Positions 9,111 to 37,129 of a stretch of DNA of 64,000 bases are shown here, in pieces. Position numbers and translations under genes: made by a program. Where the stretch lies: contig JBMFMV010000003.1 in assembly GCA_049970495.1 (NCBI GenBank), forward strand, positions 8,754 to 72,753, given 5' to 3'. The notes beneath the pieces are model-generated. The model did no database searches. It worked only from the letters and a program-made list of their open reading frames with translations, and was not told the DNA's origin. Origin of the DNA: a bacterium. Lineage in GTDB: Bacteria; DUMJ01. The first letter of the stretch is position 1. Each line of letters opens with the position of its first letter.

Positions 9111-9128
9111 TTAAGGAAGGTTGAAGGT

Positions 9129-9749: not shown

Positions 9750-9765
9750 TGGATGGAGGTTATAT

Positions 9766-10239
9766 ATGCTGAGACAGAAGCCTAGTATAGAAAGTCTTGC
9801 AAAGATGTTTATTAATCAATTACTTGGTCCATATAAACTTAAGTATGATCTCTCTGTAGAACTAAAGGATAATATATACTGGGTAAATCTAAAAGGAGAT
9901 GATGTATCCTTTCTTATAGGAAGGAAAGGGGTAATTTTATACTCTCTTCAGCATTTACTAAGACTCTACATTAGAAGAAGTATAGATGAAGAGGTAATGG
10001 TAACACTAGATATAAATGGATACAGAGCAGAGAAGGAGAGAAAACTTGTATTTTTAGCCAGAAAGGCTGCTTTTAGAGTCAAAAAGACAGGCAAGAGATT
10101 TGTTTTTAGACCTATGCCTGCAGCATTAAGAAGAATTATCCATAAGACATTAGAGAATAATCCAGAAGTTATTACTTACAGTGAGGGAAAAGAGCCGAAG
10201 AGGAGGGTTATAGTGGTGTTAAAGCCCAAAAATGGATGA
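9766..10239 (+). CDS. jag: Jag/SpoIIIJ-associated RNA-binding protein (KH + R3H)
   Basis: Sits after yidC. C-terminal R3H-like IIHKTLEN. Confidence 0.7.
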   Translation: MLRQKPSIESLAKMFINQLLGPYKLKYDLSVELKDNIYWVNLKGDDVSFLIGRKGVILYSLQHLLRLYIRRSIDEEVMVTLDINGYRAEKERKLVFLARKAAFRVKKTGKRFVFRPMPAALRRIIHKTLENNPEVITYSEGKEPKRRVIVVLKPKNG

Positions 10240-11587: not shown

Positions 11588-13419
11588 AGGTATTTGATGT
11601 TATTGTTGTAGGAGCAGGACATGCTGGGATAGAGGCGGCCCTATCTGCTAATAGATTGGGCTGTAGTGTTCTGCTTTTGACAGGAAATTTAGATACCATA
11701 GCTTGGATGCCTTGTAACCCTGCTGTAGGGGGACCAGGAAAGGGACATCTAGTCAGAGAAGTAGATGCCCTTGGTGGAGAGATAGGCCGGGCTACTGATG
11801 CTACTTATATACATATAAGAGTTCTTAACTCTGGAAAGGGTATAGCGGTAAGGGCTTATAGGGCTCAAGTAGAGAAGAAGTTTTATCATATCTATATGAA
11901 AGAGAAGCTTGAGAATACACTAAATCTTATCTTGAGACAGGCTCAAGTAACAGATATTTTAGTAGAAGGTAAGAGGGTGATAGGGGTAAGAACAAAGACT
12001 AATCAAGAATTCTATGGTCAAGCAGTTGTTATAACTACCGGAACCTTTCTTGGTGGAAGAGTCTTTATTGGCACAGAGGTGTCTTACCCTGCAGGAAGGG
12101 CTGGAGAACCACCTAGCGAAGAGCTTACTCAATCTCTCAGAAATCTTGGTTTTAGAATAGGTAGATTTAAGACTGGAACTCCACCTAGAGTCGATGGAAG
12201 GACAGTGGATTTTTCTAAAATGACTGAGCAGCCACCAAGTGAGGTCCCCTTAAGATTTTCCTATCGAACCGAACTGGCGGAAATTATTGGTAGGAAGCAA
12301 CTCTCTTGCTGGCTCACCTTTACAACTGAGAAGACTAGGGAGATAGTACTAAAGAATCTCCATAGAGCACCTATGTATGCAGGGCAGATAACTGGAACGG
12401 GAACTAGATATTGTCCGTCCTTTGAGACCAAAGTTGTCCATTTTCCACATAGGGAGAGACATCAGGTTTTTATAGAACCTGAAGGCATTCATACCAATGA
12501 GATGTATGTACAAGGTATGTATACTAGTCTTCCTGAAGAGGTTCAAATAGAACTTCTTAGGTCTATCCCTGGGTTAGAAGAGGTCGAGCTGATGAGACCT
12601 GGCTATGCTATAGAGTATGATATGGTCTATCCAGATCAATTGAAGGAAACTCTTGAGACGAAAAAGATTTCTGGGCTCTTTCTTGCTGGGCAGATAAATG
12701 GTACCTCTGGGTATGAAGAGGCAGCAGCTCAAGGACTTATAGCGGGTATAAATGCAGCATTTTATGTTCAAAAAAGAGCTCCATTCTATCTTCAAAGAAG
12801 TGAGGCTTATATTGGAGTTCTTATAGATGATCTAATAACTAAAGGGATTGTAGAACCATACAGGATACTCACCTCAAGGGCAGAGTATCGTCTTGTTCTT
12901 ATGCAGGATAACGCAGATGAAAGACTTATGGAAAAGGGATTTAAGATTGGTCTAATAGATGAGAAGACTTATAAAGAGATGTTAGAGAGAAAGAAACTCG
13001 TAGAAGAAGAGATAAAGAGGTTAAGAAAGACAATTATCCCAGAGCTAAAGGCCTCAGCTTATAATTATTTAAAGAGGCCTGAAGTATCTTATTTGGATGT
13101 TATGAAGAAGTTAGGTGAAGAGCCCTTACTCTCTTCTGAGCTTATAACTAGGCTAGAAGCTAAAGTAAAATATGAGGGGTATATAAAGAGAGAAGAGGAG
13201 AGGATTAAGAGGTTTAGTCAGTTAGATGACAAGGTTCTTCCTGAAGATATAGATTATAGTAGTATTAAGGGGCTCTCACTTGAAGCGCGCGACAGGTTAA
13301 ATCAAGTTAGACCTAGGACATTGGGCCAGGCTAGTAGATTGCAAGGGGTCAGTCCAGCAGATATAGATGTCTTACTCGTATACCTGGAACTTTATAAGAG
13401 AGAAGCATCCAAAACTTGA
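11584..13419 (+). CDS. mnmG: tRNA uridine 5-carboxymethylaminomethyl modification enzyme MnmG (GidA)
   Basis: FAD-binding [14 protein letters not shown]. 611 aa. Confidence 0.9.
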
Positions 13420-13420
13420 G

Positions 13421-13921
13421 ATGTATCTTGAAGAACTTTTAAACGCACGAAAGAGTTTTAGCCTCTCTGGTGCAAGAGAAAGAGAAGATTTTATAAAGCT
13501 TATAGAGGAATCTTTGGCTCCGCTTTTGATTATAAATGATTGGAAAGGTAAGAGGATTATAGATATAGGTTCTGGAGCAGGATTTCCTGGTATACCCTTA
13601 GCTATAGTCCAAGAAGATGCTAATTTTTTATTAGTTGATATTTCTGTTAAAAGAACTGCTTTTCTCAATCTAGTTAGATCTAAACTTCAGCTTAGTAATG
13701 TAGAAGTATTATGTATGGATGCTAATAAATTAAAAGATGTTCAGAGGTTTATTGGAGCTTTCGATATAGCTCTCTCGAGAGGGGTAGGGGAAATCGACTA
13801 CCTTAGGTCTATTATTTTCCCTTTACTAAAAACCGGTGGGACGATGATATTATTTAAGTCAAAGGGAGAAGGATACAGGGTTAAACCTGGTCTAGTCTTA
13901 CTAAAAGAGGAGAAATCATGA
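13421..13921 (+). CDS. rsmG: 16S rRNA (guanine527-N7)-methyltransferase RsmG (GidB)
   Basis: SAM motif DIGSGAGFPGIPLAI. Start moved to ATG (MYLEEL...) right after the mnmG stop; the ORF-track start at 13367 overlaps mnmG. Confidence 0.8.
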   Translation: MYLEELLNARKSFSLSGAREREDFIKLIEESLAPLLIINDWKGKRIIDIGSGAGFPGIPLAIVQEDANFLLVDISVKRTAFLNLVRSKLQLSNVEVLCMDANKLKDVQRFIGAFDIALSRGVGEIDYLRSIIFPLLKTGGTMILFKSKGEGYRVKPGLVLLKEEKS

Positions 13922-15141: not shown

Positions 15142-16194
15142 ATGACTAGTAGGGAAAGGGTAAGGATGGCTTTGGAGCATAAAGAACCTGATAGAGTTCC
15201 TATCCATGATAGTATTTGGGGTGCTACTGTAAGTAGGTGGCATAAGGAGGGATTACCAGAGGAGATCCCTGTCTCGGAATATTTTGATTTTGAGATAGTT
15301 GGTTTTGGTGCTGACCTTTCCCCTAGGTTTCCGGTAAAGGTCTTGGAAAGAAATGAGACTTATATAGTTGAAACTACCCCTTATGGAGGGATAAGAAAAA
15401 ACTTTAGGGATTATTCCACCACACCTGAGATAATAGACTGGCCTATAAAATCTAAAGAGGATTGGTATAAGATAAAGGATAGATTACAGCCAGATATAAC
15501 TAGGGTAGATTGGGTCTCATCTCTGAATGCCTATAATAGAGCCTATGAGGATGGGAAGTTCATCACCTACAGTGCAGCTATGGGGTATGATCAATTCCAG
15601 TCTTATATAAAGACTGAAGAATTACTTATTCTTCTTATAGAAGATCCCGAATGGGCTATAGATATGTTTAGGACACATGCTATATTACTTATTGAGATGG
15701 CAAAGATTATGATGGAGCATGGATTTAAGTTCGATGGAGCTTTTCTGTACAATGATATGGGTTATAGGAATGGGCCTCTATTTTCTCCTAAGACATATCA
15801 AAAGGTCCTACAAGAGACTGATGCTATGATCTGTGAGTTTTTCCATAGGCATAATATGCCTGTTATACTCCATTCCTGTGGTAATGTGAAGGAATTAATC
15901 CCATATCTAATAGAAGCGGGATTTGATTGTCTCCAGCCATTAGAGGTAAAAGCAGGAATGGACTTACTAGAGCTTAAACCGAAATATGGAGATAAGATTG
16001 CCTTTATGGGGGGGATAGATGTAAGGAAGATGACAGACCCAGTTGCTATAGAGGAAGAAATAAGTAAGAAGTTTGAAGTTGCCAAAAAAGGTGGAGGCTA
16101 TATATATCATAGCGATCACTCTATTCCTAAGAATATAAGTTTTGAAGACTATAGGCGTGTAATAGAGCTAGTTAAGAAATATGGTAAATACTAA
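15142..16194 (+). CDS. Uroporphyrinogen decarboxylase (URO-D) family protein, MtaA/CmuA-like methyltransferase
   Basis: 350-aa URO-D-fold protein with no other tetrapyrrole genes nearby, a typical context for corrinoid methyltransferases. Confidence 0.55.
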   Translation: MTSRERVRMALEHKEPDRVPIHDSIWGATVSRWHKEGLPEEIPVSEYFDFEIVGFGADLSPRFPVKVLERNETYIVETTPYGGIRKNFRDYSTTPEIIDWPIKSKEDWYKIKDRLQPDITRVDWVSSLNAYNRAYEDGKFITYSAAMGYDQFQSYIKTEELLILLIEDPEWAIDMFRTHAILLIEMAKIMMEHGFKFDGAFLYNDMGYRNGPLFSPKTYQKVLQETDAMICEFFHRHNMPVILHSCGNVKELIPYLIEAGFDCLQPLEVKAGMDLLELKPKYGDKIAFMGGIDVRKMTDPVAIEEEISKKFEVAKKGGGYIYHSDHSIPKNISFEDYRRVIELVKKYGKY

Positions 16195-17834
16195 ATAATC
16201 CCTATAATTTCTCCATCGTCATTTACATCAATCTTAACAGCTGATGGAGATTTTGGTAAGCCAGGCATCGTCAATATAGAACCTGTGTAGGCCACTATAA
16301 AGCCAGCCCCTAGAGATACTTTTAACCTTTGGACATTTATATAGAACCCCTTAGGTCTCCCTAGTTTTTTAGGATCGTCACTTAATGAGTATTGTGTCTT
16401 AGCCATACATATGGGAAGGTTTGTAAATCCCCATTTGTATATCTTATTAAGATCATTCTGTGCCTCGTTACTGAAATTTACACCTTCTGCGCCGTAAACT
16501 AGTTTAGCTATCTTTTCTATCTTTTCTTCATATGAGTCTTCTAACTTATACAAGAAATTAAAAGAATTAGAGTCATTAGCAACTGAATCTAATACTTCAT
16601 TAGCCAGTTCTAAGGCTCCCTCTCCCCCAACTTCGTAGACATTAGAAACAGCAAACCTTACATCTATCTCTTTTAACTTACTTTTTAGAAATTCCAATTC
16701 TTTGTCAGTATCTGATGAGAATCTATTTATTGCCACAACTACCGGAACCTTAAAGACATTTCTTAATACCTCCATATGGTGAAATAGATTAGGCAGCCCC
16801 CTTTCTATTGCTTCTGTGTTTTCATTTTCTGCCCCTTTTTGACTTCCCAATCCATGATACTTTAAGGACCTTATAGAAGTTACTAGTACTACCGAATCTG
16901 GATGAAAATTTCCTACCCTACACTTTATATCGAAAAATTTTTCTCCACCTAGATCTACCCCAAAACCTGCTTCAGTTACTATATAATCTGCAAGAAGGGT
17001 AGCAAGAGTAGTTGCTATTATAGAGTTGCAGCCATGAGCAATATTTCCAAAAGGTCCACAATGTATAAATGCAGGAGTTCCTTCCAATGTTTGAACCAAA
17101 TTGGGAGAGAGTGCGTTTTTCAATAAAGCAGTCATTGCTCCTTCTACCTTTAAGTCTTTACTTAAGACAGGTTTATCCTCCTTATTTACCCCAATTACTA
17201 TATTACCTAGCCTTTCTTTTAAGTCCCTTATATTTTTTGCCATAGATAATATCGCCATAATTTCAGAAGCCGCTGTTATCTCAAAACCATCCTCTCTAGG
17301 TATTCCATTACTTTTTCCTCCAAGCCCGCTTACTATAAATCTTAATTGCCTGTCATTCATATCTACACATCTTTTCCAATATATCTGTAAGGGGTCTATA
17401 TCTAGCTCGTTTCCATGATAGATATGGTTGTCTATCACGGCTGATAGAAGATTATGAGCAGAAGATACTGCATGTATGTCTCCAGTAAAGTGTAAGTTTA
17501 TGTCTAAATCTGGAAAGACCTTAGCCCTTCCTCCTCCAACAGCCCCTCCTTTAACTCCAAATATGGGACCTAGGGATGGTTCTCTTAGACAGATTATAGT
17601 CTTCTTACCTAGCCTTGATAGTGCGTCTCCTAGACCTATAGTCGTAGTAGTTTTCCCTTCACCTTTGGGTGTAGGATTAATAGATGTCACAAGTATAAGT
17701 TTTCCCCTTTTTCTATCTTCTAGTTTATGGATAAGTTTCCAGTCAACTTTGCAGATATACCATCCATAGGGATAGTATTCATCCCTTTTTATCCCTAAAG
17801 ACTCCGTTAACTCCTCAATCCTTTTTATAGACAT
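16191..17834 (-). CDS. fhs: Formate--tetrahydrofolate ligase
   Basis: FTHFS signature PTPKGEGKTTTTIGL. 547 aa. Confidence 0.9.
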   Translation of the reverse strand: MSIKRIEELTESLGIKRDEYYPYGWYICKVDWKLIHKLEDRKRGKLILVTSINPTPKGEGKTTTTIGLGDALSRLGKKTIICLREPSLGPIFGVKGGAVGGGRAKVFPDLDINLHFTGDIHAVSSAHNLLSAVIDNHIYHGNELDIDPLQIYWKRCVDMNDRQLRFIVSGLGGKSNGIPREDGFEITAASEIMAILSMAKNIRDLKERLGNIVIGVNKEDKPVLSKDLKVEGAMTALLKNALSPNLVQTLEGTPAFIHCGPFGNIAHGCNSIIATTLATLLADYIVTEAGFGVDLGGEKFFDIKCRVGNFHPDSVVLVTSIRSLKYHGLGSQKGAENENTEAIERGLPNLFHHMEVLRNVFKVPVVVAINRFSSDTDKELEFLKSKLKEIDVRFAVSNVYEVGGEGALELANEVLDSVANDSNSFNFLYKLEDSYEEKIEKIAKLVYGAEGVNFSNEAQNDLNKIYKWGFTNLPICMAKTQYSLSDDPKKLGRPKGFYINVQRLKVSLGAGFIVAYTGSILTMPGLPKSPSAVKIDVNDDGEIIGII

Positions 17835-17981
17835 TTGTTGTCAAGTCCCTCCTATGGTATACGTATTTCATGTAAGTATTTGAATTATAATATCATATTG
17901 AGGTCCACCATGGAATAAAGTGCTACTATCTTACGTCTACTTTTTTGAGAAAAGTAATAAAAGAGAAGGAGGTGATTTAGT

Positions 17982-18482
17982 ATGAAAAGGGTTTTAGCCT
18001 TAGTCTTGAGCCTAGCTTTACTATTAGGGACAGTACAGGTTGCCTTTACTAAGCCTCTACCCTCTAGAAGGATACCTATTATAGCAGGTCCATTTAGGTG
18101 TGATATTGTGGAGATTTCACCATGGGGGCAGAATTTAATAAAGTATTTAAACCTTACCGATGAGCAGATAAATAAGATCAAAGAGTTGAGAGATAGGTAC
18201 TATGGGAAGCTAAAAGACCTATGGAATAAACTACAGGACGCGGTATTTTCACTTAGGCAACTACAATTCCAAAGGCAACCTGATAAGACTCAGATAGAGG
18301 AGAAGAGGAAAGAGATAAGTAATATTAGAAAAGAGATTAATAATACACTTAAAGATTACTGGAATGAGTTTAAAGGGATACTTACCAAGGAGCAATTGTC
18401 TAAGCTAACAGAAAGAAAATTTACACCTCCATTTAGAATTAAAAGGACTCCTTGGAGATGTAGTCCTTTTTTTAGATGGTAA
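17982..18482 (+). CDS. Periplasmic Spy/CpxP-family protein (LTXXQ motif)
   Basis: Signal peptide MKRVLALVLSLALLLGTVQVAFT. Two LTXXQ motifs (LTDEQ, LTKEQ). Confidence 0.6.
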   Translation: MKRVLALVLSLALLLGTVQVAFTKPLPSRRIPIIAGPFRCDIVEISPWGQNLIKYLNLTDEQINKIKELRDRYYGKLKDLWNKLQDAVFSLRQLQFQRQPDKTQIEEKRKEISNIRKEINNTLKDYWNEFKGILTKEQLSKLTERKFTPPFRIKRTPWRCSPFFRW

Positions 18483-18489: not shown

Positions 18490-18519
18490 TTAGGGTCTTA
18501 GGGGATAACCTAAGACCCT
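18490..18519 (-). terminator. Strong hairpin terminator between the convergent CpxP-like gene and hypF (T-run on the minus-strand side)
   Basis: tagggtcttagg / cctaagacccta forms a 12-bp stem with loop ggataa. Minus-strand read continues into TCCTTTTTAC. Confidence 0.6.
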
Positions 18520-20762
18520 ACCCTTCCTCCAATTATTGCCTGCCCTAGAGATAGTCCTCCGTCATTGCAGGGAACCTGATGGTGAGTGTAGATTTTAAAT
18601 TTTTTCTCTCTTAGGTAATTGATAGTTTTTCTTAAGAGTCTTCTATTCTGAAAACATCCTCCACTTAAGACTACAGTGTCTATTTTGGTCTCTTCTCTTA
18701 TTGCTAGAGCTATATCTAACACTATTTTAGATATAGTATTGTGGAATTTAGCAGAGATAAGACTCATAGGAACCATATCTATGTCATTTATAATCTCTTC
18801 AAGCAAGTTCTTGAGTTTTATAATATAGGTGTTATTCTCCTCTTTTACCTCAAAACTATAGTGATCATCAACTTCTATATCTTTACTTACCATTTCTAAC
18901 TCTATAGCGGGTTGACCTTCGTAGCTTGTTTCTTTACAAATATTTAATAGACTAGAAATTACATCAAACAACCGCCCCATAGAAGATGTAAGTGGAGTAT
19001 TTATCCCTTTATCTATCTGCTCCTTTATGGCTCTTATCTCTGTCTCTGATATACCTTTTAAAAAGGGTAGATTGGGAATATCTCCAAATAGCTTAAAGAG
19101 ATAACCTATGGCAAGCCTATAAGGTCTCCTTATTGCTAATTCACCTCCAGGTAATGGGAGATATTCTAAATGTGCCTTTCTAATAAAACCATCATAATCT
19201 ACTACTAAGATTTCCCCTCCCCATACATTACCATCTAGACCATATCCAGAGCCATCAAAGGCTATCCCTATAACGGGCTTGGTAACATTATTCTCACCCA
19301 TGCAACTTACAATATGAGCATGGTGGTGTTGAACTCTTATTAGTGGTATGGTTCCTTCAAACTGTAGGGCATATTTAGTCGATAGATATTCAGGATGCAT
19401 ATCACAGACTACTATCTCAGGTTCTATTCTAAAAAGTCTTTTATATAAATCTATTGTACTTGTAAAATGTTCTAGGGTTTCTATGTTCTCTAGATCGCCA
19501 ATATGTTGGCTGATAAACGCATAATTATCCTTGGTAAGGCAGAAGGTATTCTTTAATTCTCCTCCGCATGCCAAAACCTGTTTCATCTTAAATGGAATTT
19601 TTACTGGTGATGGCGCATAACCCCTTGCCCTTCTTATCAAATACGGTTTTTCTTCAAAGACAGAGGCTACACTATCATCATAGCGTGAGTATATATCTCT
19701 GTCATTTAGAAGAAAGTAATCTGATATACCCTTTAGTCTATTTAAGGCTTCTTCATTATCCTGACATATAGGTTCTTCACTTAGATTTCCACTTGTCATT
19801 ACAAGTGGTCTATCAATCTCTTTAAAGAGTATATGATGTAAAGGTGTATATGGAAGCATTATACCAAGATAATTATTATTGGGAGCGACATTTTTTGATA
19901 TGTTGCCAAGGTCCTTTATCCTAAGTAACACTATTGGGGCTTGAGGGGATTTTAGAAGTTCTTCTTCTTTTGGTGTGATATAGCAGTACTTTTTTATCGT
20001 ATCTAAATCTTTCATCATAAGAGCAAAAGGTTTATTCCCTCTTCTTTTCCTCTCTCTTAAAAGGCTTACTACCTTATCATTTGTAGCGTCACATGCTAAA
20101 TGAAACCCTCCAAGTCCCTTTATTGCTATAATGAAACCCTCTTTTAAAAGTCTGGCAGTTTCCTTTATAGGGTCTTCGGACTCTAGTCCTTCTATCCATA
20201 ACTTGGGGCCGCAGATAGGACAGGCATTAGGTTGCGCATGAAATCTTCTATCTAAAGGATCATTATACTCCCTTTCACAGTCTTTACACATCTTAAATTT
20301 TTCCATTGTGGTATTCTTTCTGTCGTAAGGGATGTCCTTTATAATAGTGAACCTTGGTCCACAGTTTGTGCAGTTTATAAATGGATATCTATAGCGTCTA
20401 TCTTTAGGGTCAAATAGTTCCTCAAGACAGTCTTGGCATACTGCTATATCTGATGAGATAAGCTGATACCCTATGTCTTCTTTACTCTCTTTAATAAAGA
20501 AGTCTTTATAGTTATTTAAGATTGAATCCTCTATCTCTATGTTCTCTATCCTAGCGATAGGTGGGGCTTTCTTCCTAATGTTAGATATAAATCTTTCTAC
20601 ATCACTATCTTCTCCCTCTATTTCTATCTCTACAGAGCTAGAGGTATTTAACACCCATCCCTTTAGGTTGTGTTCTTTTGCTAATCTATATATAAATGGT
20701 CTGAAACCTACCCCTTGGACAACTCCGAAGATCCGTATCCTTTTACTTATAAGAGTTTTCAC
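18510..20762 (-). CDS. hypF: [NiFe]-hydrogenase maturation carbamoyltransferase HypF
   Basis: Acylphosphatase domain (VQGVGFRPF), paired CxxC zinc fingers, YrdC and Kae1-like domains. 750 aa. Confidence 0.9.
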   Translation of the reverse strand: MKTLISKRIRIFGVVQGVGFRPFIYRLAKEHNLKGWVLNTSSSVEIEIEGEDSDVERFISNIRKKAPPIARIENIEIEDSILNNYKDFFIKESKEDIGYQLISSDIAVCQDCLEELFDPKDRRYRYPFINCTNCGPRFTIIKDIPYDRKNTTMEKFKMCKDCEREYNDPLDRRFHAQPNACPICGPKLWIEGLESEDPIKETARLLKEGFIIAIKGLGGFHLACDATNDKVVSLLRERKRRGNKPFALMMKDLDTIKKYCYITPKEEELLKSPQAPIVLLRIKDLGNISKNVAPNNNYLGIMLPYTPLHHILFKEIDRPLVMTSGNLSEEPICQDNEEALNRLKGISDYFLLNDRDIYSRYDDSVASVFEEKPYLIRRARGYAPSPVKIPFKMKQVLACGGELKNTFCLTKDNYAFISQHIGDLENIETLEHFTSTIDLYKRLFRIEPEIVVCDMHPEYLSTKYALQFEGTIPLIRVQHHHAHIVSCMGENNVTKPVIGIAFDGSGYGLDGNVWGGEILVVDYDGFIRKAHLEYLPLPGGELAIRRPYRLAIGYLFKLFGDIPNLPFLKGISETEIRAIKEQIDKGINTPLTSSMGRLFDVISSLLNICKETSYEGQPAIELEMVSKDIEVDDHYSFEVKEENNTYIIKLKNLLEEIINDIDMVPMSLISAKFHNTISKIVLDIALAIREETKIDTVVLSGGCFQNRRLLRKTINYLREKKFKIYTHHQVPCNDGGLSLGQAIIGGRVGS

Positions 20763-21387
20763 TTTCGAGCCATTCTACCCAGGTATCTATGCCTTCCTTT
20801 GTTTTACAGGAAAGAAGAAAGATTTTTGCATTCTTATTTAAAGCTATTATTCCATTTTTAAACCTTTCTAGGTCAAAATTTACATAAGGTAGAAGATCGA
20901 TCTTATTCAGTATGACTGCGTTTACTTTTGAAAACAGTCCAGGATACTTATATGGTTTATCATCTCCTTCTGGAATGCTAGATATGGCAATTCTTATATG
21001 TTCCCCTAAATCAAAGCTGGCAGGGCAGATAAGGTTTCCTATGTTTTCTATAAATAGATATTTTACATTAGAAAGAGAAAGCTTCTTAGTAGCCTCCCTT
21101 ATCATTGGGGCGTCAAGATGACAGTTCCCTCCAGTGTTTATTTGCACTACTGGGATATTAAATTTCGCCATCCTCTCACTGTCTATACTTGAGGCTACAT
21201 CCCCTTCTATTACCGCTACTTGAGACCCTAACCTAAAGATGGTTTCTAATATAAGACTTGTCTTTCCAGCTCCTGGAGAGGACATTATATTAATTGTAAA
21301 TACCTTTAGATTATCAAAAAACTCTCTGTTTAAAGCAGCAACTTGATCGTTAGCATCTAGGATATTCTTCACAATCTCTATTTTCAT
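20743..21387 (-). CDS. hypB: Hydrogenase nickel incorporation GTPase HypB
   Basis: P-loop SSPGAGKTSL. 214 aa. Confidence 0.85.
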   Translation of the reverse strand: MKIEIVKNILDANDQVAALNREFFDNLKVFTINIMSSPGAGKTSLILETIFRLGSQVAVIEGDVASSIDSERMAKFNIPVVQINTGGNCHLDAPMIREATKKLSLSNVKYLFIENIGNLICPASFDLGEHIRIAISSIPEGDDKPYKYPGLFSKVNAVILNKIDLLPYVNFDLERFKNGIIALNKNAKIFLLSCKTKEGIDTWVEWLESENSYK

Positions 21388-21715
21388 CTTCCACCTCTAT
21401 GCTCTCTATATAAAATTCTCTCCCTTCAATTACATCTCCGCCAATCTTTTTACAGTAGGGACACAGGTATGTTTCATCAGGAATGAACTCTTTTTGACAG
21501 TTGTAACATCTTAATTTTACAGGGATCCTTCTGAATAGAAGTTTTGTTCCCTCTAATGGTGTTGATCTTGTTAACAATTCGAAATAAAATTGGATAGACT
21601 CGTCAATAAAGCTAGAAAGATCTCCTATTACCAATTCTATAGTCTTTACCTTTTTGCCCTTACTTACTTCCGTAACTGTCTTTATTACCTCTTCTGTAAC
21701 TGCCAACTCATGCAT
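21350..21715 (-). CDS. hypA: Hydrogenase nickel insertion protein HypA
   Basis: MHELAVTEE N-terminus. CxxC...CxxC zinc site. ~12-aa acidic C-terminal tail overlaps hypB. Confidence 0.8.
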   Translation of the reverse strand: MHELAVTEEVIKTVTEVSKGKKVKTIELVIGDLSSFIDESIQFYFELLTRSTPLEGTKLLFRRIPVKLRCYNCQKEFIPDETYLCPYCKKIGGDVIEGREFYIESIEVEDENRDCEEYPRC

Positions 21716-22149
21716 ATCTCTTTTATCTTTTTTATAGCCTCCTCCGAGTTCTTTTTTGCTTCTTTAGTTATATCAAATCCAAAATCAAAGTTGTACCCTT
21801 TTATAGATACTAGATACGACTTAGGGCATACCCCGTAAAGTTCCTTGGTTATAGCTAGAAGCATCTCTGGACTTATATGATGAGAAAAGATTGGAGTTTT
21901 GTATCTAGGGGCTATCTCTCTAATAATAAAGTCTTCCACTTGATTTATACTAGCATCAACAAAAAAGACAAGCTCGTATCCTGAAATATCCTCACAGAGT
22001 TCAGGACCGAGCTCTTGAAGAGATATTACATCAACACTAATTTCCTCAAGTGAAAGTCTTTCAGTTACATATTCTCCAATCCCATCATCGCATCTTGCAG
22101 GATTTCCATAACCTATAATTAATATTCTAGTCCCTCTTGACGCTTCCAA
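21685..22149 (-). CDS. Hydrogenase maturation endopeptidase (HoxW/HycI family)
   Basis: ILIIGYGNPARCDDGIG motif. TTG start. Overlaps hoxH 3' end by 23 nt. Confidence 0.8.
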   Translation of the reverse strand: MEASRGTRILIIGYGNPARCDDGIGEYVTERLSLEEISVDVISLQELGPELCEDISGYELVFFVDASINQVEDFIIREIAPRYKTPIFSHHISPEMLLAITKELYGVCPKSYLVSIKGYNFDFGFDITKEAKKNSEEAIKKIKEICMSWQLQKR

Positions 22150-23554
22150 TCACCTCTCCGGTAGAACTAGAAATGATATCGATGACCATTGGCATCTTCC
22201 CTACAGCGTGAGTAGAACAGGAAAGGCATGGATCATAACATCTTATTAACCCTTCAACCCTATTAAGCATACCTTCGGTAAGATTTTTACCATCAATATA
22301 TCTTTTAGCTACTTCCTCTACTCCTTTACTCATAGCCCAATTATTATGACCAGTGGCTACTATTAGATTAACCTTTACTATTGTTCCTTTATTGTCTACC
22401 CAATAGTGATGGATAAGAGTTCCTCTAGGAGCCTCTATTACCCCTATCCCTTCAGGTAAAATCTTATCTGTGGTGACAAGTATATCGTCTGAGAGTATAT
22501 CTGGGTCTAATAGAAGTTCCTTAGCCCTCTCAGCTGCAAATAGATCCTCTATTAGTCGGGCATAGTGGTAATATAAAGACCCTTCTACTGGTTTTCCTCC
22601 ATTTATGCTCTTAAAGTTTTTAAATTCTTCTTGTGCAAGAGGAGTATCGACCTTTTCTGCAACATTTAATCTAGCTAAAGGTCCTACTCTATAAACCCCA
22701 TCTGGCCATCCTAGCTTCTTATAGAATGGAAACTTCAGATAAGACCAGTCTTCTACATGTTCCCCTATATAGTTTAGATAGGTAGATCCATCAAAGAGTT
22801 CTAAGAGATTACCATCTTTATCTATAAGTTTTACCTTGCCATCATATAGTTCTAATCCACCATTTTCTGTTACCAAACCCATATATCCACTTGGAAATAC
22901 TCCAAATTCTTCTACAGTCTCTTTATTCTTCTCTATCCAATCTTTAGCTAGACTTATACCTTCTTGTATATAAGAGATCATAGAATCTATCTCTTTTAAT
23001 AATTCATCTCTGTCCTTTACTGAGAGCGCATTATTTACACCACCTGGAACTGCGTAATTAGGATGTATCCTTCTCCCTGCAAGTTTGGCTATTATCTCCT
23101 GTCCAAATTTACGAAGCTTTACCGCCTTCATTGCTAACTCGGGATTTGCCTCTATTATACCGACGACATTTCTAATCTTAGGGTCTGCGTCCCACCCAAA
23201 GATTAGGTCCGGACCAGCTAACTCAAAGAAATGCATAGAATGAGATTGTATAACTTGTCCCATATGCATAAGCTCTCTAAGTAGCTTTGCTGGTCTAGGA
23301 ATATCTGCAGAGATAATGGCGTCACAAGCCTTAGCAGAGGCTAGATGATGACTTACAGGACATATACCGCAGATTCGCGGAGTTATAACTGGCATTTCAT
23401 AGAACATTCTTCCTTCACTAAATTTCTCAAATCCCCTAAATTGGTCTACATGGAAATAAGCCCTATCAACCTTACCATCATCATTTATATATATTGTTAT
23501 TCTAGCATGTCCCTCTATTCTTGTTACTGGTTGGATAGTTATCTTTTGGGTCAT
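22127..23554 (-). CDS. [NiFe]-hydrogenase large subunit, cytoplasmic group-3-like
   Basis: N-terminal RICGICPVSHH and C-terminal DPCLSCSTH Ni-Fe ligands. 26-aa C-terminal extension for protease cleavage. Confidence 0.85.
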   Translation of the reverse strand: MTQKITIQPVTRIEGHARITIYINDDGKVDRAYFHVDQFRGFEKFSEGRMFYEMPVITPRICGICPVSHHLASAKACDAIISADIPRPAKLLRELMHMGQVIQSHSMHFFELAGPDLIFGWDADPKIRNVVGIIEANPELAMKAVKLRKFGQEIIAKLAGRRIHPNYAVPGGVNNALSVKDRDELLKEIDSMISYIQEGISLAKDWIEKNKETVEEFGVFPSGYMGLVTENGGLELYDGKVKLIDKDGNLLELFDGSTYLNYIGEHVEDWSYLKFPFYKKLGWPDGVYRVGPLARLNVAEKVDTPLAQEEFKNFKSINGGKPVEGSLYYHYARLIEDLFAAERAKELLLDPDILSDDILVTTDKILPEGIGVIEAPRGTLIHHYWVDNKGTIVKVNLIVATGHNNWAMSKGVEEVAKRYIDGKNLTEGMLNRVEGLIRCYDPCLSCSTHAVGKMPMVIDIISSSTGEVIGSVKRD

Positions 23555-23566
23555 TGCTACCTCCTT

Positions 23567-24109
23567 CTAATCATACCTTAATAAATCACCAACAAGAAGC
23601 GGTTTGCGTCCCTCTACTAATTCTCTTAGTACATAATATATTGCATCAGCTCTAGGCGGACATCCAGGTATATAAAAATCTACCTTCACTATTTGATTTA
23701 CTGCCTTAGCTAGCTTTGTGTGTTTACCTATCTCAGGTGAAGTAGGAATTTTACCGTTCACTGTGCTTTCTGTCTCTATATAACCACGTCTCAATAGCTC
23801 TTCCACCGGGAAATAATTCCTCATGGTTACTATACCACCAAATACAGCACAATCGCCTATGGCTATAAGGAATTTACACTTGTCCCTCATATGTTTTACA
23901 ACTTCTATATGGTGATCTGTACTAACCGCTCCTTCCAAAATACCTATATCTACTTCCTCTGTAGGCTCTTTAAAATCTGTTATGGGAGTAGCGTTTAACT
24001 CTACTCCCATCTTTACCAGTTCAACTAAACGTTCATCCATATCTAATATTGACATATGACATCCAGAACATCCATCGAGCCAATCTGTGGCTATAGTAAT
24101 CTTTTTCAT
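23567..24109 (-). CDS. [NiFe]-hydrogenase small subunit (short HoxY-like, no Tat signal)
   Basis: DGCSGCHMS, GDCAVFGG and PGCPP cluster motifs. 180 aa. Confidence 0.8.
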   Translation of the reverse strand: MKKITIATDWLDGCSGCHMSILDMDERLVELVKMGVELNATPITDFKEPTEEVDIGILEGAVSTDHHIEVVKHMRDKCKFLIAIGDCAVFGGIVTMRNYFPVEELLRRGYIETESTVNGKIPTSPEIGKHTKLAKAVNQIVKVDFYIPGCPPRADAIYYVLRELVEGRKPLLVGDLLRYD

Positions 24110-24121
24110 AACTTTCCTCCT

Positions 24122-25780
24122 TTACCTTCCTAGAAGTATACTGAGGATTTCGCCATTAGTCTTTACACCTTTTTTAGGTGTCAAAACTTTGACGAGCTTT
24201 TGTTCTATCCCCTCTATGTTTATATATGTCCCCTCTTCTTCCAACCAGATAGAGCTTGGCAGTACAATATCTGCAGATTCAACCGCTGGAGTATAATAAC
24301 TAGTCTGCAAAATGACCTTATTTAAATTCTCAGGAAGTTTATCTATGTAAGGAGCAACTATATAGGCATTTTTCTTAAGAACAAAGCTTCCATTGAGTCC
24401 AATCTTTTTAGCCCCAAGATAGTTTGATGCAGGGGCAAGCCATATGAATTTTGCTTTGCCACTTATACGAGATAAACTATCTGCTATGGTCTTGTCTATC
24501 TGGCTATATATAATAATAGGACTATTCCCTGTAAGTGCATTACCTATGGCTTTGTCTAGGTCCTTCATTTGATATGAAAGTTTGGCAAGTTTGTTTAGGC
24601 TATTTGGTTTATCATCGACTACTATAAGTTCACCATCATTAAAGACTGCTCTCTTTACAAATGAACCTACTACACCAAAATTCTTATCCAGATCCACCCC
24701 TATTATAACAATCTTATCTGCACTTAGTATATCACTCATCTTACCGAAATTGTCTATAGGATTAGAGGTATTTTCTATTAACCCGATGTTATCTCCTAGG
24801 AGGTCTTTAAACTTAGAAAGGACCTCTAAAGGTAAAGAGGCAGAGATATATCCAACTGTTTCCTTTTCAGCAAGTATTTCCTTTGCCTTATCTATAGCTT
24901 CTTCCCATGTAACAGGTTCTAATTTACCATCTTTTCTTATCATAGGTTGAGTAATTCTCTCTTTTGTATCATTTAGAGGTTCATATCTACCTAACTTGCA
25001 TAGAACTCCATTATTTATGGGATTCTCCCAGTCTCCTAAGATCTGTACTATATGATTAGCCCTTTTATAAACTTCTATTCCACAACCAACACTGCAGTTT
25101 GCACATATAGTCTTTATCAATTCACTTTCTTTTCTAGTGCCAAGGTAGACGCCTTTTTTATCGGTTAATGCACCAGTAGGACAGACCTGTACGCAGAGGC
25201 CACAGGAAACACAAGAAGACTCTCCAAGAGGCACATTTAGATCGGCAGTAAGCATGGAATCAATTCCTCTTTGACTTATACCTAAGACATTGTGACCAGC
25301 CATCTCTGAACAAGCCCTGATACATCTCCTACATAGAACACACCTATTATGGTCTACCAATATATATTGGTGACTTGTATCTACAGGGAATTTTGTTATA
25401 TAAGTTGGAAGTTCGAAGTGATCCAGTCCCATAGAATAGCCTAGGTCTTGGAGCTCACAATTACCGCTCATTTCACAGTACATACAGTAGTGATTTCTCT
25501 CTGAAAAGATAAGGTTTAGTACAAATTTCCTAGCTTTTTTTACCGTTTCGGTATCTGTTTGTATCTCCATCCCTTCAGATACAGGCAGGGTGCAAGAAGC
25601 TTGCAATACCCCAGGCCTTGTTTCTACTACACACATCCTACAAGCCCCTATAGAAGTTAACTTTGGATGGTAACACAACACCGGTACATCTATTCCAATT
25701 TCTTTTAATACTTCAAGAACTGTTTTCCCCTCTTCAACCTGAGCCGGTTGTCCATTTATTTTGATATTTACTAAAGCCAT
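24122..25780 (-). CDS. NuoG/HoxU-like iron-sulfur subunit (2Fe-2S plus 4Fe-4S clusters plus truncated molybdopterin-oxidoreductase fold)
   Basis: N-terminal 2Fe-2S ferredoxin fold (CYHPKL...CRMC). CxxCxxxC clusters. CANCSVGCG Fe4S4 motif of the molybdopterin-oxidoreductase family. 552 aa. Confidence 0.7.
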   Translation of the reverse strand: MALVNIKINGQPAQVEEGKTVLEVLKEIGIDVPVLCYHPKLTSIGACRMCVVETRPGVLQASCTLPVSEGMEIQTDTETVKKARKFVLNLIFSERNHYCMYCEMSGNCELQDLGYSMGLDHFELPTYITKFPVDTSHQYILVDHNRCVLCRRCIRACSEMAGHNVLGISQRGIDSMLTADLNVPLGESSCVSCGLCVQVCPTGALTDKKGVYLGTRKESELIKTICANCSVGCGIEVYKRANHIVQILGDWENPINNGVLCKLGRYEPLNDTKERITQPMIRKDGKLEPVTWEEAIDKAKEILAEKETVGYISASLPLEVLSKFKDLLGDNIGLIENTSNPIDNFGKMSDILSADKIVIIGVDLDKNFGVVGSFVKRAVFNDGELIVVDDKPNSLNKLAKLSYQMKDLDKAIGNALTGNSPIIIYSQIDKTIADSLSRISGKAKFIWLAPASNYLGAKKIGLNGSFVLKKNAYIVAPYIDKLPENLNKVILQTSYYTPAVESADIVLPSSIWLEEEGTYINIEGIEQKLVKVLTPKKGVKTNGEILSILLGR

Positions 25781-25883
25781 TTAAGACCTCCTCGCTAATC
25801 TAAGAAATTACCTAAAATATTTTAAACATAAAATCTAGCCAAGTCAAGTAATTGTATGAGTTACATACATTTGAGACTCCGGA

Positions 25884-26292
25884 TTACATTTTAAACATAT
25901 AATCAGTAGGAGATAAATTATTTAAGCTTTTATGTACCCTCTTAGTAGTATACAAATAACATAGTCTATAGGTAAACTTGTGTTCTATTCCTCTCCCTTT
26001 CAAGTACTTGTCAAAGACACCTAAGAATTCCGAACCATTATCTGTTTGCACAACCATAATTAGAAGACTAGAATCATAGTTGATCCTAGCTTAAGCCAAA
26101 TATGTATCATCCAAACACCTGGTAGCTCTTATAAACCTCAATCAAGATAGACTTTCTACATCTTTTCTATTACTATTAAAGTTCTCTATTCAAATTTTAG
26201 GATATTTATCTTTCTTTATACCTTTCGCAAAGTAACCTGAACTTCTCCTCAGCCTCCTATAAAGAGTTCTCTGATTTAAGATCAGAGAATTT
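25884..26292 (-). mobile_element. Degraded IS transposase remnant (rve DDE integrase core, IS3/IS481-like), multiply frameshifted or deleted
   Basis: Minus-strand translation gives ...VVQTDNGSEFLGVFDKYLKGRGIEHKFT...SLNNLSPTDYMFKM*, the DDE TDNGSEF motif plus a C-terminal block. Upstream out-of-frame pieces encode an HTH-like NQRTLYRRLRR. No intact ORF. Confidence 0.6.
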
Positions 26293-26417
26293 CCTAGAGT
26301 TAAGATACGATGCGGGTTTAGAAAAATAGATGCAACGCATGTGTCATTTTCAAAATTGGAATTGTCTTAGGAGCGCCTACTCGAAGTCTACCAAAGTAAA
26401 AATAAATATATAATAAA

Positions 26418-26444
26418 GTAGGGCAGATGTTTTACCTGCCCTAC
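26418..26444 (-). terminator. Rho-independent terminator of the solute-binding-protein gene
   Basis: gtagggcag / ctgccctac forms a 9-bp stem with a 9-nt loop. Minus-strand continuation is T-rich (TTTATTATATATTTATTT). Confidence 0.55.
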
Positions 26445-26467
26445 AAAGTATTGCCATCAATAATGAT

Positions 26468-28417
26468 TTACTTCTTAAAGAAGAACTGCTCTGGACGAGC
26501 ATTCTTTGGGGATCTTATGTTATCGTCCCATAGGAGCCCATCAGGGATATTTCTAAAATTATTTTTAACTACTATAAGCTGTGGCACCTCTCCTACAAGT
26601 CCTATCATCCAGATATTCTTTTTGTGGAGGTTAATTATCTCTTTAAAGTATCTATTCCTTTGTTTTTCGTCACCTGTAACCTTTACTTTGTCCCAAAGTT
26701 CATAGATTTTTCTAATATCTCCCCTGGGTTCTTCTCCACCTTTTCCGCCAGTAGTATACCATGTTGCATATAGAGGAGCCCAAGGAGCTTCTGCTACCAT
26801 CCCCAATAGATGTCCTGGATCAGAAAGAACTGCTACATTTCTATCAAAGCCCCATACTCCAACTTCTAATTCTCCAGCTCTAGCTCTTGTTACATATAGA
26901 GAACGTTCTAAAGGTTTTAACGCTACTTTTATCCCTATGTTTTCCCAGTATTTCTTTATAACTTCCATATATGGCCTGTCTCCGGAGTATTCTATAGTAA
27001 TTGCTAGCGTCTTTCCATCTGGTCTTAATCTAAATCCATCTTTATCTCTCTTGGTTAGCCCCATTTTATCTAGATACTCATTCGCTTTCTTAGGATTGTA
27101 TTCTGCATAAGCCTTCTCCCACTCTGGATCGTAGAAAGGTGCTCCACTTATTATAGACGCTTGCCTAGGTTCTCCTAAACCTAGATAGAATAATTGATTT
27201 ATCTCTTCTCTGTTTATAGCTAAGGATAGAGCAAATCTAAATCTTCTATCCTCAAAGATCTTTCTTAGCACTGGGTCTTTTACGTTTTGATTAAGTAATA
27301 TTGCTGGGCTAGCTCCCGTTCCTTGTGGCCATCTTAATACTCTATAATCTCCCTTTGTTCTGTTCTCCATAAGTAGCGTGTAATCTGCAAGGGCTAATCC
27401 CCTTTCCTGCATATCCACTTCACCAGCAATAGCTTTTAGGACTGCAGTTTCTCCAGACTGTAATAGGAGATGAGTTATTCTATCGATATAGGGAAGCTGA
27501 TTACCAGCTGGATCTATCTTCCAATAGTAGGGATTTCTTTCCATTACTTGTAAGGTTACAGTATGAGGGGTGGTTGTTCTCCAGGGATAAATTACAGGTA
27601 ATTCTGGATTCTGTAAGAAGTCATTCTTGTTACTAAAAAGTTGATACCAATTTTGAAGGCCTTCCTTCTTCACAAGCTCATCTAGTTTTTCTTTAGGAGT
27701 ATACTTAGGATGAAACTGTTTTAAGTAGTGTTTTGGGGCGAAGAATGTATGTCCCCCTCCCATCTTTCCTATAGATATAAGGAAAAGTGGGCTGGGTTCT
27801 TCGAAAGTAACTCTAAATGAGTATGTATCGATTTTATCTATCTTACATGGTTTACCTCCAGCTATAAGCCATGTAGGAATTGTTGGTGTAAGCTCCTTGT
27901 TTAAAAGAATATCTTCATACCAGAACATTACGTCTTCGGTTGTTAGTGGTATCCCATCAGACCATTTTATACCCTCTCTAAGTTTAAATGTGTAGACTTT
28001 GGCGTCTCTTGAGACCTTCCAACTCTCTGCAACATTGGGTAATATTTTGGTCCCATCTTTATTAAACATTACTAAATGTTCGCTACAGAGTTTATAAGGA
28101 CCGGGAGAATCTGAAAGTCCAGACCAAGTTCTTCTCCAAGTCCCCCCGTATTCTCCAATCTCCTCATAAGGTGTTACAACTAGAGGGTTTTTAGGTAATC
28201 TTTGTTCTACTGGTGGAAGTTTTCCTTGTTTCACTAATTCTGCCAATTGTGGAGCTTCGTTGAATTTAGTAATTTTCTTGCCAGTGAGTTTCTCATAATC
28301 TGAGAGATTATAATACTCTCCTACCTCTACTTTTTCGGCACTGAAACTTATTTTGACAAGGCTTAGAAACATACTAATGCATACAAATAGAATTGTTAAT
28401 ATACGCCAAATTCTCAT
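26468..28417 (-). CDS. ABC transporter substrate-binding protein, family 5 (oligopeptide/oligosaccharide/nickel type), orphan
   Basis: Signal peptide MRIWRILTILFVCISMFLSLVKISFSA. 649-aa SBP_bac_5-like architecture. No permease or ATPase genes adjacent. Confidence 0.65.
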   Translation of the reverse strand: MRIWRILTILFVCISMFLSLVKISFSAEKVEVGEYYNLSDYEKLTGKKITKFNEAPQLAELVKQGKLPPVEQRLPKNPLVVTPYEEIGEYGGTWRRTWSGLSDSPGPYKLCSEHLVMFNKDGTKILPNVAESWKVSRDAKVYTFKLREGIKWSDGIPLTTEDVMFWYEDILLNKELTPTIPTWLIAGGKPCKIDKIDTYSFRVTFEEPSPLFLISIGKMGGGHTFFAPKHYLKQFHPKYTPKEKLDELVKKEGLQNWYQLFSNKNDFLQNPELPVIYPWRTTTPHTVTLQVMERNPYYWKIDPAGNQLPYIDRITHLLLQSGETAVLKAIAGEVDMQERGLALADYTLLMENRTKGDYRVLRWPQGTGASPAILLNQNVKDPVLRKIFEDRRFRFALSLAINREEINQLFYLGLGEPRQASIISGAPFYDPEWEKAYAEYNPKKANEYLDKMGLTKRDKDGFRLRPDGKTLAITIEYSGDRPYMEVIKKYWENIGIKVALKPLERSLYVTRARAGELEVGVWGFDRNVAVLSDPGHLLGMVAEAPWAPLYATWYTTGGKGGEEPRGDIRKIYELWDKVKVTGDEKQRNRYFKEIINLHKKNIWMIGLVGEVPQLIVVKNNFRNIPDGLLWDDNIRSPKNARPEQFFFKK

Positions 28418-31730: not shown

Positions 31731-33146
31731 TCAAAGAATTATATGGGCTGGTTTTAAGGTCCACGTTTGTAACTTGGCTAGCTCTATAATATTTGGAGCA
31801 CTAAAGTCCTCCGGAAGGATAATCCAATCCCATACCCCCTCTTCTTTGACTTGACTTTCAAGAAGTAAATTCCCTTTTATTATCTTGATATTTTCAGGTA
31901 GTGAAGTGTTGATAGGTAACTGAGAGATTAATACATTGGCCGTAGCAAAAAAGTCTATTGGGCTTACAATTTTGTCCTGAATAGTTATGGCTTCTGGAAT
32001 TCGGCCATTCTTATTAATAAATTCCAAAATCCATCTACAAGCGAAAGCAAGGTCTTCTTTATTAAAAAATATAACTTCGCTATCAATCCTTTTTATGGGT
32101 CCATAGATTGTATCAGGTAACTTAAATTTAGACTCTACTATACATAGATTGTTATCTATTAAGTTTACTAATAACGATAGGGCTAAATAGAAGATTTCAG
32201 CAGGTGATAATGTTATTCTATCAAATCCGTAATAGGTAATTTTAGAATTAATCTCTTTAGCTAGGTGAATAATTTCAGAAGTAGAAAATAACTCTTCTTT
32301 AGCTTTATTAAAGTATATACTGTAAGCCTCTCTAGCTGTTAGTATTTGAACGTCTGAATGTGAAGCTATATAGTTTAAATATTCAGAGAAGTATCCGAGC
32401 TCTTTTTTCATCCTCTCATAGGATTTTAATTTAGGGATAGTCCAACTGGAGCGATCTGTATTCTTACCCCTACTAAAATTGACACTATCCCAGAATTCAT
32501 AGGTGGCAAATTCACATGGATGATACCATATACTAATCACTCCACCGTCCTCATTTATAAGACGTCTAAAGATATTTTCGAAGTTTTCAATACCTACTTT
32601 GATTCCTTCATAACCTAGTTTTAGGTCAAGTCTTGTAGTATTCTCTCGAAGCCTAAGGATATTGAGTATCCCACAGTACCAGAAGGGCTTTTCATTAAGT
32701 CCTATATGCTCAGCTTCATCAAGATAGACTTGAATTCCCCAGTTTTTAAGAACAGGGTATACATGTGGTGCCCAAGAGGAACCCGGTTGTCCATAACAAG
32801 AAGGTATAACATCAAATGTGTCTATTATTTCCTCATACCCAATCCTTTCTCTAAGTTCAAATTCTTTTATCCCTTCTTCCCACCCAAGGTCTTTTAGATA
32901 TTCAGCTACTGTTGGATGAACACTGTGTAGATTAGTATGATATCCGATATCGTGCTTTTTTAATCTATCAATTATGTCATATCTTCCTCGCTCTTTTAAG
33001 GCTCTAACTTTCTCCCCTACTAATTTAAAGGTTCCTTTTATCTTATACGAATCTAGGACATCTATTATACCCTTGAGAGCGTCATCGCTTTGTGGAGTAA
33101 TAAAATCTTCCACGTCAAACCAAAGTAAGACATATACTTTAGACAT
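31731..33146 (-). CDS. Hypothetical protein with distant polysaccharide-deacetylase (CE4/NodB-like) N-terminal features
   Basis: WFDVEDF and HTNLHSVHP loosely resemble CE4 motifs 1 and 2. 471 aa. Weak assignment. Confidence 0.3.
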   Translation of the reverse strand: MSKVYVLLWFDVEDFITPQSDDALKGIIDVLDSYKIKGTFKLVGEKVRALKERGRYDIIDRLKKHDIGYHTNLHSVHPTVAEYLKDLGWEEGIKEFELRERIGYEEIIDTFDVIPSCYGQPGSSWAPHVYPVLKNWGIQVYLDEAEHIGLNEKPFWYCGILNILRLRENTTRLDLKLGYEGIKVGIENFENIFRRLINEDGGVISIWYHPCEFATYEFWDSVNFSRGKNTDRSSWTIPKLKSYERMKKELGYFSEYLNYIASHSDVQILTAREAYSIYFNKAKEELFSTSEIIHLAKEINSKITYYGFDRITLSPAEIFYLALSLLVNLIDNNLCIVESKFKLPDTIYGPIKRIDSEVIFFNKEDLAFACRWILEFINKNGRIPEAITIQDKIVSPIDFFATANVLISQLPINTSLPENIKIIKGNLLLESQVKEEGVWDWIILPEDFSAPNIIELAKLQTWTLKPAHIIL

Positions 33147-36927: not shown

Positions 36928-37129
36928 TTTAATCGACACCTCCTGAAAGCTTAATGTCTGATCTAGGTTGAAATTTTATCAAGTTTATACTTAATTGTCA
37001 AAGGTTTCCCTGCTAATAAGTCTAACTTTTCTTTGAAGATGTAAGATTATAATATATTAAACTCTTGTATATTAATCGATTTGTAGTAAAATATATGCAA
37101 GATTGTCAGGGTTTGGAAGGAGGGTAATT

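Follow-up and report, generated by a model that had tools for sequence, protein, structure and literature searches.

A Conserved Operon Encoding a Soluble [NiFe] Hydrogenase Core without Linked HoxE and HoxF Genes

With which partner does a cytoplasmic [NiFe] hydrogenase exchange electrons when no gene for a diaphorase lies beside it, and was such a gene once there? The question is raised by a 64-kb stretch of bacterial contig JBMFMV010000003.1 (assembly GCA_049970495.1), hereafter the window, which contains an operon for a large (L), a small (S) and a third, iron-sulfur (A) hydrogenase subunit and, just upstream of it, the decayed remnant of a transposase. The original prediction considered that the diaphorase module had been lost through an insertion sequence (IS) event, or that the enzyme uses a noncanonical partner. 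The locus is an intact and conserved operon, inherited vertically, that encodes the catalytic core of a group-3 [NiFe] hydrogenase, a soluble enzyme of the Hox/NiFe-HydABCSL lineage, and the absence of neighboring NuoE/NuoF-type genes is the ancestral state of the clade to which the window belongs, not the scar of an IS. As for the partner, a HoxE/HoxF-type (E/F) flavoprotein encoded in trans is slightly favored over a direct coupling to ferredoxin, with a probability of about one half.

Operon Organization and Family Assignment

The operon consists of seven closely packed genes that run on the minus strand from position 25780 to 18510, and all of its hydrogenase open reading frames (ORFs) are intact.

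25780..24122, minus strand: A subunit, 552 aa, long HoxU/NiFe-HydA-like (Pfam and NCBIfam matches)
24109..23567, minus strand: small subunit, 180 aa, HoxY/HydS-like (Oxidored_q6, PF01058, E = 4e-31)
23554..22127, minus strand: large catalytic [NiFe] subunit, 475 aa, HoxH/HydL-like (NiFeSe_Hases, PF00374; precomputed Pfam family PF27537, HoxH)
22149..21685, minus strand: hydrogenase maturation endopeptidase, 154 aa (TIGR00072, 73 bits against a cut-off of 47)
21715..21350, minus strand: HypA nickel metallochaperone (PF01155, E = 4e-28)
21387..20743, minus strand: HypB nickel GTPase (TIGR00073, 254 bits against a cut-off of 121)
20762..18510, minus strand: HypF carbamoyltransferase (TIGR00143, 888 bits against a cut-off of 466)

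The assignment to the cytoplasmic group-3 [NiFe] hydrogenases with a long NuoG-like third subunit, made in the original prediction, holds. The large subunit has the Ni-Fe ligand motifs L1 (PRICGICPVSH) and L2 (DPCLSCSTH), the latter followed by a 24-aa cleavable C-terminal extension. The short small subunit starts with MKKITIATDWLDGCSGCH, has no twin-arginine (Tat) signal, and possesses only the four cysteines of the proximal [4Fe-4S] cluster (C14, C17, C87, and C150); its best matches are HydS and HoxY, with 7t2r_E at the top of the PDB hits (E = 4e-54). For the large subunit, the ranking of PDB matches, used as a proxy for a dedicated HydDB classification, places HydL first (7t2r_D, 621 bits, E = 1e-185), followed by MvhA (454 bits, 5e-135) and the HoxH of the Hydrogenophilus soluble hydrogenase (414 bits, 9e-123). 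A, S, and L each find their best match in the NiFe-HydABCSL of Acetomicrobium mobile, which by sequence makes the predicted enzyme a Hox/NiFe-Bfu-type hydrogenase core.

The A. mobile enzyme is electron bifurcating (NiFe-Bfu; PDB 7T2R and 7T30; Feng et al. 2022, PMC8880783) and shares with the window the gene order A-S-L, the single-cluster S, and an A subunit of the HydA type that has no H-cluster and carries five Fe-S sites (A1-A5), including the Molybdop_Fe4S4 site (A5). It differs in that its HydB (flavin mononucleotide (FMN)/NAD, clusters B1-B5) and HydC have no counterpart encoded in cis, be it in the window or in the 10 kb around the operon of 11 relatives, and in the length of A, 692 aa as opposed to 552 aa with a shorter vestigial molybdopterin domain. 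In addition, the F protein linked to the hydrogenase in other relatives is HoxF-like and, unlike HydB, lacks the C-terminal 2x[4Fe-4S] ferredoxin domain. The group 3d enzymes HoxEFUYH and HoxFUYH (Synechocystis; Hydrogenophilus thermoluteolus, PDB 5XF9) resemble the window enzyme in the L1/L2 motifs, in the HoxY-type S, and in a HoxU that matches residues 1-224 of A, and relatives of about 45% identity (Caldisericota, Coprothermobacterota), as well as Anaerolineae, carry HoxE and HoxF-type genes directly upstream. However, the third subunit of group 3d is about 240 aa long, whereas it is about 550 aa here, and neither HoxE nor HoxF is encoded in the operon or elsewhere in the window.

That MvhA ranks second among the solved homologs of L, ahead of HoxH, also raises the idea of a Mvh-like (group 3c) hydrogenase feeding an HdrA-type bifurcating partner; the best NCBIfam model for L is VhuA, and the Poudel paper treats a homolog of another Acetomicrobium species, A. 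thermoterrenum, as Mvh. This is nevertheless very unlikely. The VhuA score of 479 falls under the cut-off of 800, the 180-aa S holds one cluster whereas MvhG has about 300 aa and three, the third subunit is of the HoxU/HydA type, and neither the window nor any of the 80 loci surveyed below contains genes for MvhD or Hdr proteins (HdrABC).

The Upstream Junction and Close Relatives

The statement that no HoxF/NuoF or HoxE gene lies upstream of A has been confirmed and extended. The upstream genes encode a solute-binding protein (SBP_bac_5) and, farther on and on the same strand, a glucose-6-phosphate dehydrogenase; no NuoE or NuoF was found in the window by a Pfam search of essentially all ORFs of at least 100 aa, by blastp with Caldisericota and Chloroflexi proteins as queries, or by motif scans. 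Likewise, genes of the families PF01512 and PF01257 are absent from the window and from the 10 kb around the operon in 11 relatives. The elements of the junction are as follows.

25793..25787, minus strand: ribosome-binding site GAGGAGG
25847..25819, minus strand: sigma-70-like promoter TTGACT-17-TAAAAT (promoter scan, 10 of 12 matches)
25884..26150, minus strand: decayed IS481-like DDE (rve) transposase remnant, outside the hydrogenase operon (Pfam rve, tblastn)
26444..26418, minus strand: intrinsic terminator-like hairpin of the SBP_bac_5 gene (11-bp stem, 6 of its pairs GC, followed by a T-run)
28417..26468, minus strand: SBP_bac_5 solute-binding protein gene, upstream of A

The rve fragment is indeed present, between the SBP_bac_5 terminator and the hydrogenase promoter, with weak statistics. 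Its core is a 57-aa ORF (26057..25884, minus strand; 'MVVQTDNGSEFLGVF...HKSLNNLSPTDY', also given as 'MVVQTDNGSEFLGVF...HKSLNNLSPTDYMFKM') whose Pfam rve match is below threshold (E = 0.079). A tblastn comparison with IS481-family transposases gives E of about 1e-3, with 30% identity and an internal deletion, and frameshifted traces of the transposase continue as far as about 26150.

An IS insertion or deletion that removed hoxE and hoxF, and thus left a crippled or recently rewired operon, would fit both the location of the remnant, 37 bp upstream of the -35 element, and the presence of E-F genes at exactly that position in the more distant relatives (about 45% identity; Caldisericota, Coprothermobacterota). 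The closer relatives make such an event extremely improbable. The protein itself is traced to a metagenome-assembled genome (MAG), GCA_039793545.1, on contig JBAMLL010000003.1. Eleven loci from at least five lineages, labeled at NCBI as 'Dictyoglomota bacterium' or 'bacterium', have A subunits 68-87% identical to that of the window and the same operon A-S-L-protease-hypA-hypB-hypF, and share downstream of it a DUF4890 gene, a formate-tetrahydrofolate ligase, a URO-D-family gene, and an M23 peptidase.

L006, L011, and L012: A identity 85-87%
L002-L005 and L013: A identity 76%
L007 and L014: A identity 68%

In these relatives no E/F gene was found in the up to 10 kb available per side, and no transposase fragment. 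The junction alignment shows that the last ~85 bp 5' of the A start, with the promoter and the ribosome-binding site, are conserved among the window, L006, L011, and L012, and that the sequences farther upstream are unrelated; thus, the promoter is conserved up to the junction, beyond which the neighbor varies, being AhpC in L006, a HAD hydrolase in L002-L005, L007, and L011-L014, and, in the window, SBP together with the IS remnant. Every hydrogenase ORF is intact, and its ligands are invariant, which also speaks against damage by an IS. Because the relatives share the operon, the synteny, and the promoter without E/F or IS, the operon boundary is ancestral and intact, and the IS481-like remnant at most records the swap of an unrelated upstream neighbor. 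The original prediction had itself named the same architecture in IS-free relatives as the finding that tells against its IS event; that architecture is what the synteny comparison revealed, and the loss of the diaphorase module by this route is refuted.

Within the clade, the region 5' of the hydrogenase promoter (25781-28417 in the window, compared with L006:3705-4261 and with L011/L012) is a hotspot of rearrangement.

The A Subunit

According to Pfam, A consists of the domains Fer2_4, NADH-G_4Fe-4S_3, Fer4_Nqo3, Molybdop_Fe4S4, and a partial Molybdopterin domain, and lacks Molydop_binding (PF01568). These correspond to an N-terminal [2Fe-2S] cluster (C36/47/50/63), a His-ligated [4Fe-4S] cluster (H97/C99/C102/C108), two ferredoxin-type [4Fe-4S] clusters (C147/150/153/157 and C190/193/196/200), the Molybdop_Fe4S4 site (C226/229/233/261), and a vestigial molybdopterin-oxidoreductase domain. 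The ligands of all five sites are invariant across 89 homologs, except that C190 is nearly so (at least 90%). The top PDB sequence match is 7t2r_A (E = 6e-82), over residues 4-317 and the C-terminal end. An AlphaFold (AF2) model built from the 89-sequence alignment (pLDDT, the predicted local distance difference test, 87; pTM, the predicted template modeling score, 0.87) superposes best on 7T30_A/7T2R_A, with a template modeling (TM) score of 0.85, and the next structural matches are the complex I 75-kDa/NuoG subunits.

Three other identities were considered and rejected. A scores 291 bits against the NuoG cut-off of 470 and 106 bits against the cut-off of 666 for the formate dehydrogenase alpha subunit, of which it also lacks the PF01568 domain, so both are ruled out; the canonical HoxU model NF005745 covers residues 1-224 only, with 230 bits against a cut-off of 333.

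The original prediction had pointed to the size of this subunit, about twice that of the ~240-aa HoxU. The measurement stands, and the impression of an oddity does not: A has 546-642 aa where E/F genes are linked and 536-573 aa where they are not, so a subunit of about 550 aa is the norm of the family. Homologs of A are plentiful (5460 of 8000 scored candidates at E <= 1e-30). Public annotations of the family read 'formate dehydrogenase major subunit', 'molybdopterin-dependent oxidoreductase', or 'NADH-quinone oxidoreductase chain 3', labels that are misleading for the Fe-S subunit of a hydrogenase.

Distribution of A-S-L Cassettes

A survey in which one genome per species was scanned, the 80 best loci were kept, and annotation was scripted found the A-S-L-protease cassette in all 80 loci. 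In about 37 of them, the cassette is directly preceded by HoxE/HoxF-type genes. About 22 of these loci (Coprothermobacterota, Caldisericota, Anaerolineae) have a HoxE-like and HoxF-like pair, the latter protein being 520-560 aa long with Complex1_51K and NADH_4Fe-4S domains; in 15 others, from Chloroflexota, Acidobacteriota, and Desulfobacterales, HoxE is accompanied by an F::GltD fusion of ~1020-1100 aa. Some Caldisericota and Coprothermobacterota loci (L009:900-9985, L015:3424-10008, and also L016, L018, and L019) contain two E/F sets upstream of A-S-L, namely, an adjacent HoxE and HoxF (~540 aa) and, some 5 kb farther upstream, an E with a ~1030-aa F::GltD fusion; in L009 the latter set stands beside a gene for a 414-aa protein like a sensory-type [FeFe] hydrogenase.

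E/F genes are absent within 10 kb in at least 32 of the 80 loci, and in up to 45 if those with short upstream flanks are counted, so that about 40% of the species with an A-S-L cassette have no linked diaphorase genes (32/80 confirmed). In a neighbor-joining tree of L, the loci without E/F group into at least three separate clades: that of the window, one of Dictyoglomota/Caldisericota-UBA4770, and a large one of Syntrophales/Smithella. The unlinked cassettes of Syntrophales/Smithella and Dictyoglomaceae comprise the same four genes as the window, with no E/F within 10 kb and an A of 550-570 aa; they differ in being only 43-47% identical and in falling into separate clades of the L tree, and the window clade adds hypA, hypB, and hypF. 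Throughout the 34 E/F-less loci analyzed, universal conservation is confined to A, S, L, and the protease (the last in 34/34), and neither a ferredoxin, a flavodoxin, Hdr, nor MvhD recurs in them as an extra neighbor.

The Electron Partner

In the 7T2R structure, electrons pass along the route FMN-B1-A1-A2-A3-S1-[NiFe], with A4 and A5 forming a dead-end structural branch (PMC8880783). By homology, the window enzyme would split or form H2 at the Ni-Fe site of L and conduct the electrons via the single proximal [4Fe-4S] cluster of S into A, first to the [4Fe-4S] clusters A3 and A2 and then to the N-terminal [2Fe-2S] cluster A1, while the A4/A5 branch and the vestigial molybdopterin domain would be structural. 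From A1, the electrons would then go to an FMN flavoprotein module of the HoxE/HoxF type whose genes would lie elsewhere in the genome. Such a module, which may also serve an [FeFe] hydrogenase or a formate dehydrogenase (Fdh), would couple H2 to NAD(H), and possibly to ferredoxin as well.

The sequence of A is consistent with a flavoprotein in trans. Of the 115 A columns conserved in E/F-linked enzymes, the window clade keeps 103 and Smithella 107, and a search for convergent loss found no conserved column of A missing from all three E/F-less clades. The N-terminal [2Fe-2S] domain, the part of A that touches the flavoprotein in 7T2R, ranks among the best-conserved stretches of the protein and is not relaxed. 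In the Smithella clade, moreover, E/F-linked and unlinked A subunits are 82-85% identical.

Further evidence comes from the E/F modules themselves. E-F(::GltD) cassettes 85-87% identical to the [NiFe]-linked one precede [FeFe] HydA (L093 and L094) or a split FdhA (L095 and L096), and a Coprothermobacterota-type F recurs beside FdhA (L091) and [FeFe] HydA (L092). Near-identical cassettes stand before different catalytic modules; the flavoprotein module is thus interchangeable, a generic plug for A-type N-terminal domains, which points to a diaphorase module that is swappable between [NiFe], [FeFe], and Fdh modules.

The Smithellaceae cassettes concerned (L093:9019-14838, L095/L096:9038-15787, L056:6891-13800, and also L039) encode a HoxE-like protein and NuoF::GltD, with F 85-87% identical. 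The catalytic modules downstream of them are an [FeFe] HydA of 586 aa, a split FdhA of 356 + 538 aa that possibly contains selenocysteine, and NiFe A-S-L; upstream of the cassettes linked to [FeFe] and Fdh modules (L093-L096), the same set of DRTGG/HATPase/PHP regulatory genes recurs.

A parallel is offered by the maturation genes. As the original prediction noted, hypC, hypD, and hypE are absent from the window (Pfam survey of ORFs, motif scans), with hypA, hypB, hypF, and the protease present by profile matches, and hypCDE lie outside the operon throughout the window clade. These three genes are indispensable for the Ni-Fe site and must therefore lie elsewhere in the genome, and the same is proposed for E/F.

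Several points weigh against a flavoprotein in trans. A homolog search with a Coprothermobacterota HoxF-like query, whose matches were filled by other taxa, retrieved no E/F of the window genome or of the members of its clade; the accession prefixes of candidate matches labeled '[bacterium]' were not those of the clade's MAGs, and the two gene contexts looked at, E-F beside FdhA or beside an [FeFe] HydA, belonged to other organisms. Nearly every one of 1558 HydB homologs is reported to share an operon with HydC and an A subunit (Schut et al. 2022, PMC9304861), and yet whole clades have long kept A-S-L unlinked; hence, a partner in trans would have to be shared with another enzyme. No conserved extra neighbor gene points to any partner, and the preserved A1 domain would suit direct docking of ferredoxin just as well.

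This last point leads to a somewhat less probable alternative, namely, that A-S-L is a stand-alone heterotrimer with ferredoxin or flavodoxin as its direct electron partner, without any flavoprotein. It would be the [NiFe] counterpart of CpI, the monomeric ferredoxin-dependent [FeFe] hydrogenase of Clostridium pasteurianum (PDB 1FEH), and would serve to dispose of fermentative reducing power as H2. The N-terminal part of A (residues 1-210) is homologous to the ferredoxin-interacting F-cluster domain of CpI, residues 6-209 aligning with CpI residues 4-209 at E of about 1e-19; unlike CpI, A has no H-cluster domain, and catalysis belongs to a separate [NiFe] S-L dimer. The conservation of nothing beyond A, S, L, and the protease in the 34 E/F-less loci, the stability of that state over three whole clades, and the nearly constant linkage of HydB homologs to their own A subunit (PMC9304861) also favor the trimer, as does a host lineage (Dictyoglomota-like, from biogas reactors) that is probably fermentative. 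On the other hand, the A subunits of the E/F-less clades show no convergent sequence change, those 82-85% identical to each other occur both with and without linked E/F, and no characterized precedent for such a trimer was found in the literature searched. The unlinked A-S-L enzymes of the window clade, Dictyoglomaceae, and most Syntrophales/Smithella could, tentatively, be seen as a distinct and widespread class of flavoprotein-free heterotrimeric [NiFe] hydrogenases that couple H2 directly to ferredoxin via the CpI-like A clusters.

Published accounts of these enzymes are sparse: for the [NiFe] hydrogenases of Dictyoglomus, Smithella, and Syntrophus the literature offered only passing mentions, and no biochemical characterization of an unlinked A-S-L was found in the papers searched. 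In the genome of Syntrophus aciditrophicus, the genes of a 'cytoplasmic [NiFe]-hydrogenase' are transcribed, and its peptides were not detected (PMC7311640); this hydrogenase may be an unlinked A-S-L cassette.

Other Genes of the Window

Downstream of the operon, at 16191-18482, are genes for a formate-tetrahydrofolate ligase, a URO-D-family protein (possibly a methyltransferase), and a DUF4890/LTXXQ protein, which are syntenic with the operon clade-wide (L002-L007). This synteny may hint that H2 and C1 metabolism are linked. The genes rnpA-yidC-jag(KH/R3H)-mnmE-mnmG-rsmG, a set typically located near the replication origin, occupy 8585-13921 on the plus strand, which places the hydrogenase operon ~5-12 kb from the probable origin region.

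A 448-aa homolog of the RuBisCO large subunit is encoded at 37103-38449 on the plus strand (PF00016, E = 2.5e-35) and is possibly a RuBisCO-like protein or a form III enzyme; its neighbors are a DHDPS-family gene, LarA, a PHP-domain gene, and a 1210-aa GH38 alpha-mannosidase. Finally, a 471-aa ORF at 31731-33146 on the minus strand has no Pfam match; the same gene call appears in the source record of the contig (L001), likewise without one.

Significance

IS-mediated loss plays no part here, and the locus is largely ordinary for its lineage; the question of the partner concerns a large set of existing genomes. If the partner is encoded in trans, the window holds one more Hox/NiFe-Bfu-type hydrogenase, and the result is mainly relevant to correct annotation. 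If instead the unlinked enzymes are a flavoprotein-free class, E/F or E/F::GltD would have been gained or lost repeatedly, switching hydrogenases between a ferredoxin-only and a NAD(P)H-coupled or bifurcating mode. In either case, the partner of the unlinked enzymes bears on how H2 metabolism is deduced from genomes alone for syntrophs, such as Smithella and Syntrophus, and for thermophilic fermenters.

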